NCBI GenBank assembly: GCA_964016885.1
Contig: OZ024741.1
Coordinates: 277,140,001 to 277,204,000 of the forward strand
DNA: 64,000 nt
From: Eledone cirrhosa
Lineage: Eukaryota
Reading direction: 5' to 3'
The first letter of the stretch is position 1. Each line of letters starts with the position of its first letter. Shown one piece after another: positions 3,133 through 54,299 of this stretch. A program made the translations under genes and the position numbers. The notes under the pieces are model-generated. The model worked only from the letters and a program-made list of their open reading frames with translations, was not told the DNA's origin and did not search any database.

Positions 3133-3730
3133 TATATATATATATAAATATATATATATATATATATATATATATATATATATATATATATATATATATA
3201 TATATATATATATATATATATGTAAATATGATAATAATGGAGCTGCGGCGTTGCAAATGGGTTACATATAAAAAAGTGAGTCCTTCATCAGTGACCCTCC
3301 AACCGTCCTAGGCATTTCATCGCTTTAAGGGCCATATACCTCAGGTTGGTGCGAACAACGGCTAAAAAAAGTCGTTGGGACACGTAAATAAAGAGAACGT
3401 TAGGGTGAACAAACAAAATGGTTTAAGCAACAGAAAGTGAGAGGAAAGAGACAAGTCCCAGATTTCTATGAATATAATATATATATATATATATATATAT
3501 ATATATTTATATATATATATTTATAAATATATATATGTAATATATGTATATATATATTAGAAAGTGAGGTTTTTTTTACAAAATGAAAAATAACCGAGGT
3601 GTCCTACCCGAGTGAAAGTATAAGGAAAAAAGATGATATCGAAAATGCAACTGGAGTAGTAGTAGTAAAAGTGATTTTCACCTGGAACTTGTGGAATGTG
3701 GAACTGGTGTCGCTAAGGGGCACAAAGATA

Positions 3731-4484
3731 GCACCACCACCACAACCGCCACCTGTACCACCATCAACAACACCACCACCACCACCACCACCACCACCAC
3801 CTCACTACCACTTCACTACCACCACTACTACAACCACCAGTACCATAACCTCTAACGTTTCCACCCTCACCACAACCACAACCACCACCACTACCACAAC
3901 CGCCACCTGTACCACCATCAACAACACCACCACCACCACCACCACCTCACTACCACTTCACTACCACCACTACTACAACCACCAGTACCATAACCTCTAA
4001 CGTTTCCACCCTCACCACAACCACCACCACCACCACTACCACAACCGCCACCTGTACCACCATCAACAACACCACCACCACCACCACCACCTCACTACCA
4101 CTTCACTACCACCACTACTACAACCACCAGTACCATAACCTCTAACGTTTCCACCCTCACCACAACCACCACCACCGCTACCACAACCGCCACCTGTACC
4201 ACCATCAACAACACCACCACCACCACCACCACCACCCCCTCACTACCACTTCACTACCACCACTACTACAACCACCAGTACCATAACCTCTAACGTTTCC
4301 ACCCTCACCACAACCACCACCACCACTACCACAACCGCCACCTGTACCACCATCAACACCACCACCACCACCACCACCACCACCACCACCACCATCACCA
4401 CCACCACCACCACCACCACCACCACCACCACCATCACCACCACCACCACCACCACCACCACAACCACCACCACCACTACCACAA
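3731..4484. repeat. (ACC)-based higher-order tandem repeat, unit about 120 bp, about 4 full copies
   Basis: Anchor CAGTACCATAACCTCTAACGTTTCCACCCTC recurs near 3838, 3983, 4128 and 4276. Confidence 0.85.
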
Positions 4485-4768
4485 CGTCCTTGGAAACCTA
4501 TACGTTCATCGAAAAAAGTGATTAGTTTTGTTGAGGTGGGCGGATGCTAGGTGTGTAGGGAGAAGGTGTGGAGGCTATGGTTAGTCTTGTAAACTTTGTC
4601 GGGGGGGGGCAAGGTAGGGGGGGGGGGAGAGTTGTAGACGCGGGCGGAGATGAGACGGGCAGGGGTGACTATGTCAATAGGATAAGTGGTGTGCAGGAGG
4701 GGGGGGGGGGGGTTAAAATACTGCACTGAGTCATTCATTCAGTCATTCAATACACCGTCGTTCATTCA

Positions 4769-6140
4769 GGGAATCTTTCAAATCATTTTACATCTCCATC
4801 GTGGAGGCGGCGGCGGTGGCGAGCGTAGTGGTGGTGGTGGTGGTGGTGGTGGTGGTGGTGGTGGTGGTGGTGGTGGTGGTGGTGGTGGTGATGGTGATGG
4901 TGGTGGTGGTGGTGGTGGTGGTGGTGATGGTGATGGTGGTGGTGGTGGTGGTGGTGGTGGTGGTGATGGTGGTGGTGGTGGTGGTGGTGATGGTGATGGT
5001 GGTGGTGGTGGTGGTGATGGTGATGGTGGTGGTGGTGATGGTGGTGGTGGTAGTGGTGATGGTAGTGGTGGTGGTGGTGGTAGTGGTGGTGTCACCACCA
5101 CCACCACCATCATCATCATCATCATCATCATCACCAACAACCACCACCACCACCACCATCATCACCACCACCATCATCATCGCCATCATCATCATCATCA
5201 ACATCATCATCATCATCACCGCAATCACCACCACCACCACTACCACATTCATACTCACAACCACCACCACGAACGACCACGATCATCATCATCATCACCG
5301 CAATCACCACCACCACCACCACAAACCACCACCATCATCATCATCACCACCACCACCACCGCCACCACTACCATCACCACCACCACCACCATCATCACCA
5401 CCACCATCATCATCGCCATCATCATCATCATCAACATCATCATCATCATCACCACCACCACCACCACCACCACAAACCACCACCATCATCATCATCACCA
5501 GCACCACCACCGCCACCACCACAAACCACCACCATCTTCATCATCACCACCACCACCACCGCCACCACTACCATCATCATTATGCGAGGGGTTTCCCCAG
5601 AAGAAGTGTGTTGTGTGAGATTCAAGGTAAGGTGAGACGTCCTGTGACGTCATATGACGTCATGCCTCATCACCTCAGTTCCATTGTCACATGATGAATC
5701 AGCAGAGACTCCGGTCGGCACCGTAACGTCTGGAATGTGGAAACACGGCCACCACCCCCAACACACCATTACACCCCCCACCCCACCCCCACCCACACAC
5801 ACTTTCATCCAACTCTACCGTCATCTACACCTTCCATCCATCCACAATGTCCCCATCATCACCATCACCACCACCACCACCATCACTACCACCACCACCA
5901 CCACCACCACCACCACCACTACCAACACTATTACCACCACCACCATCACCACCACTACCCTCGCCACCGCCACAGTGGAGGAGATGTAAAATGATTTGAA
6001 AGATTCCCACCACCACCACCACCACCACCACCACCACGACCTCCACCACTACCATCACCACTACCACCACACCCACCACTAGCACCACTATGACCAATGC
6101 GACTACCAGCAACGCCACCGCAACTACTGCCACCACAATC
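4769..6140. repeat. (GGT)n/(ACC/ATC)n low-complexity block with strand switch and inverted unique anchors
   Basis: GGT run switches to ACC at ~5092; 4769-4830 is the reverse complement of ~5950-6008. Confidence 0.8.
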
Positions 6141-6420
6141 CAAAGGCGGTGGAAGCATTTCTGAAGTGGGGGCTGCAAAGTTGGTCAATGTAGTTGTGAT
6201 TAGTTTAGCTCTTTTCGCTCTAAAATGGATAGAAAATGCAACTTGAGTTCAAGCAGGTCATATTACATTTACAACTTTCAATAATTATAAAAGAAAGATC
6301 GGCTATGTATACACGATGTTTGTATGTATGCATATATATATATATATATATATATATATATATATATATATATATATATATATATATATATATATATATA
6401 TATATATTTTTTTTTTTTTT

Positions 6421-6638
6421 TCAATCGATCGACTTTCGTCAAATCGGACCGAGGAAACAATGTTTCCGTTGGTCTTTCCAGTTGCTAGTACTATCTATCG
6501 GTCGCAACTCCAGGTAGAAGGAGCAACGTGAAATAAAGTGTCTTGCTCAAGGACATAACGCATCGCCCGGTCGAGGAATCGAACTCACAACCTCAAGATT
6601 GTGAATCCAATTCTCTAACCACTCAGTCACACGCCTTC
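6421..6638 (-). mobile_element. tRNA-derived SINE with CORE-like segment
   Basis: Minus strand: tRNA-like head with A box (TGACTGAGTGG) and B box (GAGTTCGATTCC), then TGTCCTTGAGCAAGACACTTTA; related copies near 2.2, 40.3, 40.6 and 52.4 kb. Confidence 0.7.
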
Positions 6639-52015: not shown

Positions 52016-52335
52016 TTGGCTGTTCCAATTACTCCGACCAGGACGGCATCTGTTCCCTCCTCAATCACGCATCCCAGGAACCACCACAAGTCGTGTCCTG
52101 GTGGAATCCTGGTAATAATAATAATAAAAAGATAGTATGAAGTGAAGTACATTACAAAGCTTAAAGATTACACGCAAAAAATTAAATTTTCGTTGTTCTC
52201 ACTCTACTTATGTATTGAGTACCTTATTTACTGTGGTTTCACTCGGATCTACACACACACATCCATCCATCCATCCATCCATCCATCCATCCATCCATCC
52301 ATCCATCCATCCATCCATACATACATACATGAACA

Positions 52336-52600
52336 CAGTGGAGGCACGTGGCCTAGTAGCAAGGGTGTTGGACTTACGATTATAATGTTGTGAGTTCAAT
52401 TCCCGGGTTGCGTGTTATGTTCTTGAGCCAATTGCTTCTGTATACTCAGCTGAAAATATATACTAGCAATAGCTGGAGGGTTTAACCCTGCGATGGACTG
52501 GCGTCCTGTCCAGGGGGAGTCGTGTACTGTCAGTCGCTTCACGCCATAGAACCAAGATAAGTACCGGCCAAATGAGCCTTCTGGCTTAAGACAGACTCTA
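52336..52600 (+). mobile_element. tRNA-derived SINE
   Basis: GGAGGCACGTGGCCTAGT A box, GAGTTCAATTCCC B box, CCCTGCGATGGACTGGCGTCCTGTCCAGGGG internal domain. Confidence 0.7.
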
Positions 52601-52974
52601 GACTAGACATGCACTCACACAAGTGAAGGGAATTTAAAAAGCAGCAAAAGATAAAAATACATTACATTAACAGCATACTATTTTAACGTTCGATATCAAC
52701 GCTAAAAGAGACATGACGTTTCGGACGATCTTCCTTCATCGAGACAGAAAATTGGAGAAAGAGAGAGAAAGGGAAAACAAACAGAAACATACAAAGCACT
52801 CTCACATTCCTCTCTCTCTTTCTGCCACACATCGCTTTCTCGCTTTCTTTCTCTCTTTCTCCCTTTCTCTCACCCTCTTTCTCTCTCACTCTCTTTTCTT
52901 TTCCACTCGCTCTCTTTCAGGAAGCAATCGACTGTAATCAAACATAGGGACAAATGGGTGCTGCCATTTTCTAA

Positions 52975-54145
52975 ATGATGGTGATGATGAAGATGATGGT
53001 GATGATGATGGTGATGGTGATGGTCATGGTGGTGAAGATAATAATGATTGGGTGAGGGGTTGATGATGATGATGATGATGATAAAATTGATGATGATGAT
53101 GATGATGGTGGTGGTGGTGGTGGTAGTAGTAGTAGTAGTAATAGTAGTAGTAGTAGTGGTGGTGGTGGTGGTGGTGGTGGTGGTGGTGGTGGTGGTGGTG
53201 GTGGTGGTGGTGGTGGTGGTTGTAGTAGTAGTAGTGGTGGTGGTAGTAGTAGTAGTAGTAGTAGTAGTAGTAGTAGTAGTAGTAGTAGTAGTAGTAGTAG
53301 TAGTAGTGGTGGTGGTAGCAGTAGTACTAGTAGTAGTAGTAGTATCTTGTATGTAACAGTTGTCATTGTTGTATATGCATGTTGAAGCAGTACGTTGTAT
53401 GCGTGCAGTCCTAGTAGTAGTAGTAGCAGCAGCAGCAGTAGCAGCAGAAGTAGTAGTAGCAGCAGCAGCAGCAGCAGTAGCAGCAGAAGTAGTAGTAGTA
53501 GTAGTAGTAGTAGTAGTAGTAGTAGTAGCAGCAGCAGCAGCAGTAGTAGTAGTAGTAGTAGTAGTAGTAGTAGTAGTAGTAGTAGCAGCAGCAGTAGTAG
53601 TAGTAGTAGTAGTAGTAGTAGTAGTAGTAACGGCAACAGCAGTAGCAGCAGAAGTAGTAGTAGTAGCAGCAGCAGTAGTAGTAGTAGTAGTAGTAGTAGT
53701 AGTAGTAGTAGTAGTAGTAGTAGTAGTAGTAGTAGTAGCAGCAGAAGTAGTAGTAGTAGTAGTAGTAGTAGTAGTAGTAGTGGTGGTGGTGGTGGTAGTA
53801 GTAGTAGTAGTAGTAGTAGTAGTAGTAGTAGTAGTAGTAGTAGTAGTAGTAGCAGTAGCAGTAGCAGCAGCTGTAGTAGTAGTAGTAGTAGTAGTAGTAG
53901 TAGTAGTAGTAGTAGTAGTAGTAGTAGTAATAATAGTAGTAGTAGTAGCAGTAGCAGTAGCAGTAGCAGCAGCTGTAGTAGTAGTAGTAGTAGTAGTAGT
54001 AGTAGTAGTAGTAGTAGTAGTAGTAGTAGTAATAATAGTAGTAGTAGTAGTAGTAGCAGTAGCAGTAGCAGTAGCTGTAGTAGTAGTAATAGTAGTAGTA
54101 ATAGTAGTAGTAGTAGTAGTAGTTGCTGTTGTTGTTGTTGTTGTT
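52975..54145. repeat. Compound trinucleotide array (GAT/GGT/GTA/GCA)n
   Basis: Direct reading. Confidence 0.95.
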
Positions 54146-54299
54146 ACCACAACAGCGACATCAGTTCCACATTCCAGTATTTGCTCGTTGAATTTTCTTC
54201 TCATCACATCACAAGAGATCGAAGTACCGCCAATGTTGTTGTTGGAAATATTGATTGGCTGAAGGATCGGGGTGAGTGATCGATAGAAGTGATGGCGTT

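Follow-up and report, generated by a model that had tools for sequence, protein, structure and literature searches.

A locus-confined array of two-module 22-bp sites on chromosome C2 of Eledone cirrhosa, candidate composite sites for a multi-zinc-finger factor

Why should a 22-bp word recur, nearly letter for letter, at one place in an octopus genome? The question is raised by a 64,000-nucleotide stretch of Eledone cirrhosa DNA (contig OZ024741.1 of assembly GCA_964016885.1; C2:277,140,001-277,204,000 of the 3.0-Gb genome), referred to here as the window, which holds four full copies of a word composed of a left module, a 5-bp spacer and a right module (Table 1). These copies turned out to form the right-hand end of a larger array, which comprises 53 sites as well as 13 spacer variants and extends over 0.54 Mb (C2:276.68-277.21 Mb). 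The array is real and non-trivial, it is confined to this one locus, and the full word is almost absent elsewhere in the genome. On balance, we favor the view that it consists of locally amplified, selected composite sites for a predicted multi-zinc-finger factor, perhaps together with TEAD, which would serve as a long-range control region or boundary.

An earlier note on the window, written from its letters alone, had described a long, fixed-spacing, non-coding element clustered at this locus, and genome-wide scans bear this out. All ten exact matches to the pattern given in that note fall within 0.52 Mb around the window, and 25 of the 28 matches at up to two mismatches lie in C2:276.676-277.212 Mb. 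With the five middle bases freed (the N5-spacer pattern), the same interval contains all 36 exact matches and 49 of the 57 at up to one mismatch. Reversed-pattern controls of these scans gave, in order, 0, 6 and 1 matches, and the genome-wide pattern counts are lower bounds. A position weight matrix (PWM) trained on 23 sites detected 53 sites in 664 kb and none in the reversed sequence; in the 400 kb flanking the array the same matrix found only two weak matches. The 53 sites are divided between the plus (36) and minus (17) strands, with a median gap of 8.2 kb. The earlier note covered four of them; it missed that the copies number 66, that they spread through local duplication and that the left half occurs independently throughout the genome. 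A lone near-perfect full word with the typical downstream flank is present at C2:167,834,483 (score 41.6), 109 Mb from the array, and no gene was identified by eye in the 30 kb around it.

Comparison of the flanks of the 53 sites gave 19 groups, including 13 singletons and several small groups in both orientations. The largest, with 23 members at 276.88-277.04 Mb, includes recent tandem copies. As flank groups occur in both orientations and old copies share the word alone, the array appears to have grown by local duplication and inversion. The claim that the flanks are unrelated is therefore correct for the four window sites, where the one link is microsatellite similarity only, and incorrect for the array as a whole. 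The sites do sit in short islands between microsatellites, as had been noticed, the median being near 190 bp for 22 representative sites versus 698 bp for random unmasked points. The impression that the element is not a transposon fragment also holds, as the full word is not the core of a genome-wide short interspersed element (SINE) or miniature inverted-repeat transposable element (MITE). A dispersed SINE/MITE was rejected because the full word is confined to one locus, with 19 flank groups; the left half alone does ride in a repeat family. The 13 further copies have both halves intact and a longer spacer, by 4 bp in 12 of them and by 2 bp in one. At C2:276.93-277.02 Mb, a +4-spacer variant produced by GA slippage has been amplified 12 times, in young tandem units, beside a normal-spacer copy; these tandem copies constitute a natural test of spacer tolerance.

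The anatomy of the word was established on 22 representatives, one per flank group, after splitting two groups that were joined partly via microsatellite-type BLAST similarity and excluding the 31 other copies. Their columns read as an invariant AGCGACA, a Y, a near-invariant CAG, a looser WTCYR and a near-invariant CATTCC, and weak flank preferences (CAC upstream, WWYACA downstream) extend the word to about 34 bp. The spacer is 5 bp in all 22 representatives, which were drawn from a fixed-length scan. An independent test of the spacing started from the 59 exact left 11-mers in the region, of which 58 carry CATTCC with at most one mismatch, 45 at a spacer of 5 and 13 at a spacer of 7 or 9. The one left half that lacks an intact right module is the element at window position 44981, a likely decayed copy of the two-module site. 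In comparison with these 58 of 59 left halves in the array, the right module RCATTCCW follows none of the 57 checked elsewhere (43 repeat copies and 14 solitary sites). On its opposite strand the word divides into the triplets GAA-TGY-RGA-ACT-GRT-GTC-GCT, and G-first triplets are typical of the target arrays of C2H2 zinc fingers. No 6-mer is enriched after correction in the flanks within 100 bp on either side (best Bonferroni P 0.098). A third motif, TGWTGC, found within 35 bp downstream in 7 of 22 representatives (post-hoc P 7e-8), is not claimed because it is not significant in this unbiased 6-mer test. A DRE-like ATCGAT, present in 3 of the 22 without enrichment, was also rejected. The RFX, ZBED1, ZNF143, Grainyhead/CP2, Scratch and REST motifs each fit at most 6-8 bases.

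Conservation was examined at the window site 39309..39330 by comparing window positions 39215-39540 with contigs of six other organisms, a check proposed in the earlier note. In three of them (organisms D, E and H, one contig each) the only piece of at least 80% identity is 39277-39343 (D) or 39298-39342 (E and H), a block of 45-67 bp with 7, 2 and 4 differences, respectively. The sole listed difference away from the block ends is at 39308, just outside the word; because no difference is listed inside it, the 22-mer appears, under this listing rule, unchanged in all three. Judged by eye, the loose ends of the contigs are similar to the flanks in the window itself, an indication that this is the orthologous site. 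At this site the word is conserved relative to its flanks, and the 45-67-bp block has the appearance of a footprint in the three organisms.

The left module is distributed far more widely than the full word. Its 15-mer has 466 matches genome-wide versus three for the reversed control, and among the 100 matches listed 24 are solitary on C1-C6. In the 14 solitary sites inspected, shared flanks are absent beyond the word and a few adjacent bases in every case. On C7, C9, C12 and C13 the listed matches are largely inverted pairs, belonging to a repeat family with arms of 1-1.5 kb that forms inverted pairs and tandem arrays. All 16 stretches examined there hold this one family, with 43 copies of the left 15-mer together, and no host-gene-like open reading frame (ORF) was seen in the family by eye. 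In a different setting, at C26:9.372-9.388 Mb, a mixed-orientation unit is present in seven copies, each with CAC-N-G-N and the left module and without the right module; it has a CCAAT word about 30 bp upstream of the left module and no Rfam match. Unique sequence at C2:348.1 Mb contains a facing pair of left-module words, separated by about 55 bp.

Taken as sequence patterns, these results would be best explained by a multi-C2H2-zinc-finger protein, distinct from CTCF, that binds the left module throughout the genome. The right module RCATTCCW would then be recognised either by extra fingers of the same protein, in the way that ZF9-11 of CTCF contact a further motif at some of its sites, or by TEAD/Scalloped at a fixed distance. 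One ancestral composite site may have spread via local duplication and inversion, its flanks decaying into microsatellite and long interspersed element (LINE) DNA and selection preserving the footprint. Together, the dozens of sites could form a long-range control region or boundary in a gene-poor interval upstream of a cholecystokinin (CCK)-type receptor gene. Should the reader belong to the large set of zinc-finger proteins of the octopus, the site in the inverted-repeat family would tie that protein to repeat control as well.

The earlier note had equated the right half with the TEAD/Scalloped site, and the right half does fit TEAD: the TEAD word RMATTCCWD (bioRxiv 2024.02.22.580842) is matched by the right module of 34 of the 53 sites and of 13 of the 22 representatives, an agreement to which the search pattern itself contributed in part. 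The genome has a TEA-domain gene, located on C6. The Tead double motif is known to be strictly spaced (bioRxiv 2024.02.22.580842). However, its canonical 2-bp spacer is found in only 2 of 22 representatives, whereas a degenerate second RCATT (at least five of seven matches) is found at a 3-bp spacer in 8 of 22; at site 8709..8730, a period test places such a second RCATT downstream at a 10-bp period. The array also differs from TEAD composites in that the partner is a non-TEAD word of 11-15 bp, and our literature search found no TEAD composite of such kind in print.

The genes around the array were sought by a Pfam scan of filtered ORFs of at least 55-60 amino acids, 121 regional and 82 flanking (of 126 candidates). 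No host gene was detected among the filtered ORFs of the array interior, where the long ORFs look like pieces of LINE, Penelope-type, long terminal repeat, Helitron and DNA-transposon elements. Among the 121 regional ORFs, the only clear host-gene match, a GNT-I-family exon, is located at 276.611 Mb and thus not within the array; the weak matches to PHD, MBD and ARM-like domains fall below the Pfam cut-offs and occur in transposon-like ORFs. The flanking ORFs match huntingtin (276.41 Mb), GNT-I (276.58 Mb) and a rhodopsin-type G-protein-coupled receptor (277.309 Mb), whose closest relatives of solved structure are CCK receptors. The first detected coding exon of this CCK-type receptor gene is 97 kb beyond the last array site. 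This gene would be the candidate target, or the array may insulate it from the GNT-I-family and huntingtin genes on the other side. A Hox or homeobox locus was rejected, as there is no homeodomain match near 277 Mb among the 91 listed.

Several points weigh against this explanation. Conservation was tested at one of the 53 sites; in organisms B, C and F, whose sequence runs were each read to only 70-76%, the motif was not covered, which leaves three of six positive, and E and H look closely related. The strict TEAD word is missed by 19 of 53 sites, and its R and W flanks were in part preset by the search pattern. The ORF length filter may have hidden short exons. A rigid protein complex should not tolerate the spacer variants, unless they are passengers of one tandem amplification, and it is not usual in an enhancer that dozens of redundant sites are each strongly constrained. 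Finally, the solitary left-module sites contain 7-20 CpG per 500 bp, compared with a background median of 11, and as a class they are not clearly CpG-rich or promoter-like.

A more ambitious version of the zinc-finger explanation, which we put forward very tentatively, is that octopods possess a putative non-CTCF architectural protein with its own 15-bp genome-wide site. The array would be its high-affinity two-module form, a chromosome-scale hub or super-boundary that possibly organises the protocadherin clusters, divergent in orientation, on either side. These clusters are located on the same chromosome at 238 and 252 Mb (minus strand) and at 331-340 Mb (mostly plus strand at 331-338 Mb), the nearest one listed being 23 Mb from the array. 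A protocadherin promoter element was tried and rejected, since no left 11-mer and no PWM score above 9.1 were found in 380 kb around 36 protocadherin ORFs or ORF pieces on C2 and C7; distant non-coding first exons were not located. By eye, most of the protocadherin coding exons shown have the look of a splice acceptor (a pyrimidine run plus AG) from a few to about 100 bp before the start codon. As apparent splice acceptors precede the start codons, the protocadherin promoters are likely to be at distant non-coding first exons.

Alternatively, each site might be a promoter element that lies upstream of a separate non-coding RNA gene, small or long. The array would then be a gene cluster, for which the nematode 21U-RNA clusters with their Ruby motif and the small nuclear RNA genes with their proximal sequence element are the models. 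Sites on both strands at one locus, unrelated flanks and individual conservation are all as in such clusters; no host coding gene was detected inside the array, and the left module is also found in a repeated non-coding unit on small chromosomes. We nevertheless consider this unlikely. Beyond about 6 bp on either side of the word, no downstream element (a TATA box or a start motif, for instance) stands at a fixed position, the flanks have no enriched 6-mer, and neither splice-donor nor poly(A) asymmetry was seen around the sites. Rfam at the gathering score gave no match in the window, in 30 of 60 regional 10-kb loci or in seven outside loci. An Rfam run by E-value on 20 loci produced microsatellite-driven matches below the gathering score, none of the 150 listed (of 368) overlapping the motif. 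No tRNA was found by ARAGORN in 50 loci, the window itself not included. Nematodes offer further locus-confined motif clusters, i.e., the MEX/rex recruitment sites and the pairing-centre motifs. As in the octopus array, one word is concentrated on both strands of a single chromosomal region in the nematode clusters, where a dedicated DNA-binding factor recognises it; the octopus word differs in being longer and two-part, with about 60 sites in 0.54 Mb on one of roughly 30 chromosomes.

Non-canonical CTCF sites, in which a weak core is offset by an extra upstream module and which form a large clustered boundary, are a still more doubtful explanation. The earlier note had pointed out that one end of the word resembles the 3' half of a CTCF core, and the fit is indeed partial. 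When the word is compared with the consensus of PMC12885311, to which we added the degeneracy, ten of the 15 core positions are in agreement in 21-22 of the 22 representatives; among them are the CGCT box and the middle base, itself degenerate, of the ZF5 triplet. However, the other five core positions conflict almost everywhere, with agreement in 3, 1, 0, 1 and 0 of 22. Under the assignment of fingers to triplets that we assume, the CGCT box and the ZF5 triplet GRK are present (GCT in 22 of 22; GAT or GGT in 21), whereas the CCA of ZF7 and the CYA of ZF6 are absent: the ZF7 triplet is variable (GGA or AGA in 14), that of ZF6 is ACT or TCT in 18, and that of ZF4 is GTC in all 22. The octopus CTCF gene, at C12:30.71 Mb, encodes 11 zinc fingers in one open frame of at least 856 codons, which also contains the YDF cohesin-binding word. 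Its zinc-finger region is 98% identical to an Octopus protein, the helices of ZF3-5 equal those of human CTCF at positions -1, 2, 3 and 6 (a point in favor of CTCF), and the recognition residues of ZF1-7, 10 and 11 are those standard in protostomes (shared, finger by finger, by 88-100% of 108 anchored homologs). A re-wired octopus CTCF is rejected because these residues are standard, and the word is not a canonical CTCF site because five of the 15 core positions conflict and the fingers are standard. No CTCF upstream motif like CTGCAGTTCC with a short linker appears in the column counts, where GGAATG abuts the core position, and the right module differs in sequence and distance from the second, upstream motif of vertebrate CTCF (PMC12885311).

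Canonical CTCF 15-mers number 75 genome-wide versus 3 in the control, and of 30 cores inspected 27 belong to one dispersed repeat family and three to unique DNA. Consequently, the left module is commoner than the canonical CTCF core in the unique DNA of C1-C6. The same scarcity keeps CTCF in contention, as does the ability of clustered CTCF sites to build strong boundaries (PMC10497529). The published case for a role of CTCF at the boundaries of coleoid genomes consists only of motif enrichment (PMC9023564, PMC13652810, PMC10658181). The CTCF-core repeat family has two variants that differ at the degenerate positions of CTCF, and it may spread CTCF sites in the octopus. Eight canonical cores are present within 0.75 Mb at the start of C18 (C18:0.15-0.89 Mb), and four within 300 bp at C27:20.589 Mb.

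The array resembles known clustered site arrays, yet it fails membership in them. Like the tandem CTCF arrays of the protocadherin genes, with their conserved sequence element (CSE) and CTCF-binding site (CBS), it has dozens of long two-module sites at one locus with a CGCT-box end (PMC7811963, PMC4978886, PMC12885311, PMC10497529), and CTCF too has a second module at fixed spacing in a subset of its genome-wide sites (PMC7811963, PMC12885311). In contrast to those arrays, the octopus array is mixed in orientation rather than tandem, and no gene follows each site. The protocadherin CSE is present as one copy about 200 bp upstream of each start codon, whereas the word is absent from the octopus protocadherin clusters sampled.

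It is quite improbable that the sites are targets of a small RNA (with a seed, a central mismatch and 3' pairing), which would make long transcripts of the two strands act as a sponge or set off decay. The 22-nt length, the location of the variable positions opposite guide positions 8-12, the Y/R variation that G-U pairs could tolerate and the retention of both halves in the spacer variants would all suit such a target, and the right end of the word equals a miR-1-type seed match followed by A or T. However, both strands carry sites, the left half is found on its own across the genome, weak preferences reach past 23 nt at either end, and the conserved block measures 45 bp. Moreover, no guide hairpin gene was found among the pattern matches: the 22 representatives, in four placements each, showed no consistent arm pairing or z-score as a precursor, and outside matches were read for their flanks only. 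RNAalifold predicted no pairs, and pairing between the left module and a downstream TGTTG was rejected, with no covariation by eye. In the supplementary files of an octopus microRNA paper (PMC9699675), which may not print the sequences, the searched words were not found.

That the sites are neutral remnants, left either by the end of a transposon or by local duplications, is very improbable and largely refuted. Local duplication is evident, with the 23-member family among the flank groups, and the inverted-repeat family carries the same left 15-mer. However, BLAST found no similarity across the motif between the array sites and that family, none of its 43 copies has the right module, the word is near-invariant in old copies whose flanks can no longer be aligned, and at the one site compared it is conserved across species where the flanks are not. 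Least credible of all is a family of conserved micro-exons or microRNA genes: most copies are stop-free in one frame per strand and the length is microRNA-like, but AGC is fixed in 22, GAC in 22 and TTC in 21 of the 22 copies with variation at second codon positions, so that the lack of synonymous variation and the stop codons of two copies in the forward frame rule out coding, while the missing consistent fold speaks against a microRNA family (a hairpin of about 60 nt with the 22-mer in one arm), and there is no Rfam match at the gathering score.

How boundaries and long-range contacts are formed in spiralians has been called an open question (PMC10658181). We found no description of the 22-bp word or the locus in the literature, where the supplementary motif tables of the coleoid 3D-genome studies, which could list the left module, were not covered, and no published binding motif of a cephalopod-specific DNA-binding protein. 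The locus supplies a conserved bait of 22-45 bp, a 15-bp companion word found genome-wide and about 60 copies in one place.

Table 1. Two-module sites and the partial copy in the window (positions counted from its first letter)
Feature	Position	Strand	Description	PWM score
Full two-module site	3693..3714	-	Left module AGCGACAYCAG, 5-bp spacer, CATTCC	38.6
Full site	8709..8730	+	Variant left module (ATCGAT replaces AYCAGT)	40.9
Full site	39309..39330	+	Used for cross-species comparison	
Partial copy	44981..44991	+	Exact left 11-mer, right module shortened and degenerate	4.9
Full site	54154..54175	+		41.6

In the window itself, the coordinates, strands and letters reported earlier for the four full sites are accurate, and these four are exactly the matches at up to three mismatches (shuffled sequences averaged 0.02 matches, and none of 100 reached four). 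The partial copy described at 44981 has a true left half on the plus strand and a decayed right half. Two supposed weaker versions, at 45024-45044 and 5732-5753, were dropped because their best PWM scores (-4.4 and -12.1) are at background level, as compared with 38.6-42.6 for real sites. A recombination or processing signal, also suggested earlier, found no support, as the aligned flanks show no heptamer-nonamer layout and RNA structure is absent. The stretches 11906-29575 and 60743-63891 of the window contain nested, frameshifted LINE-type ORFs of several families, which are ordinary for this genome.

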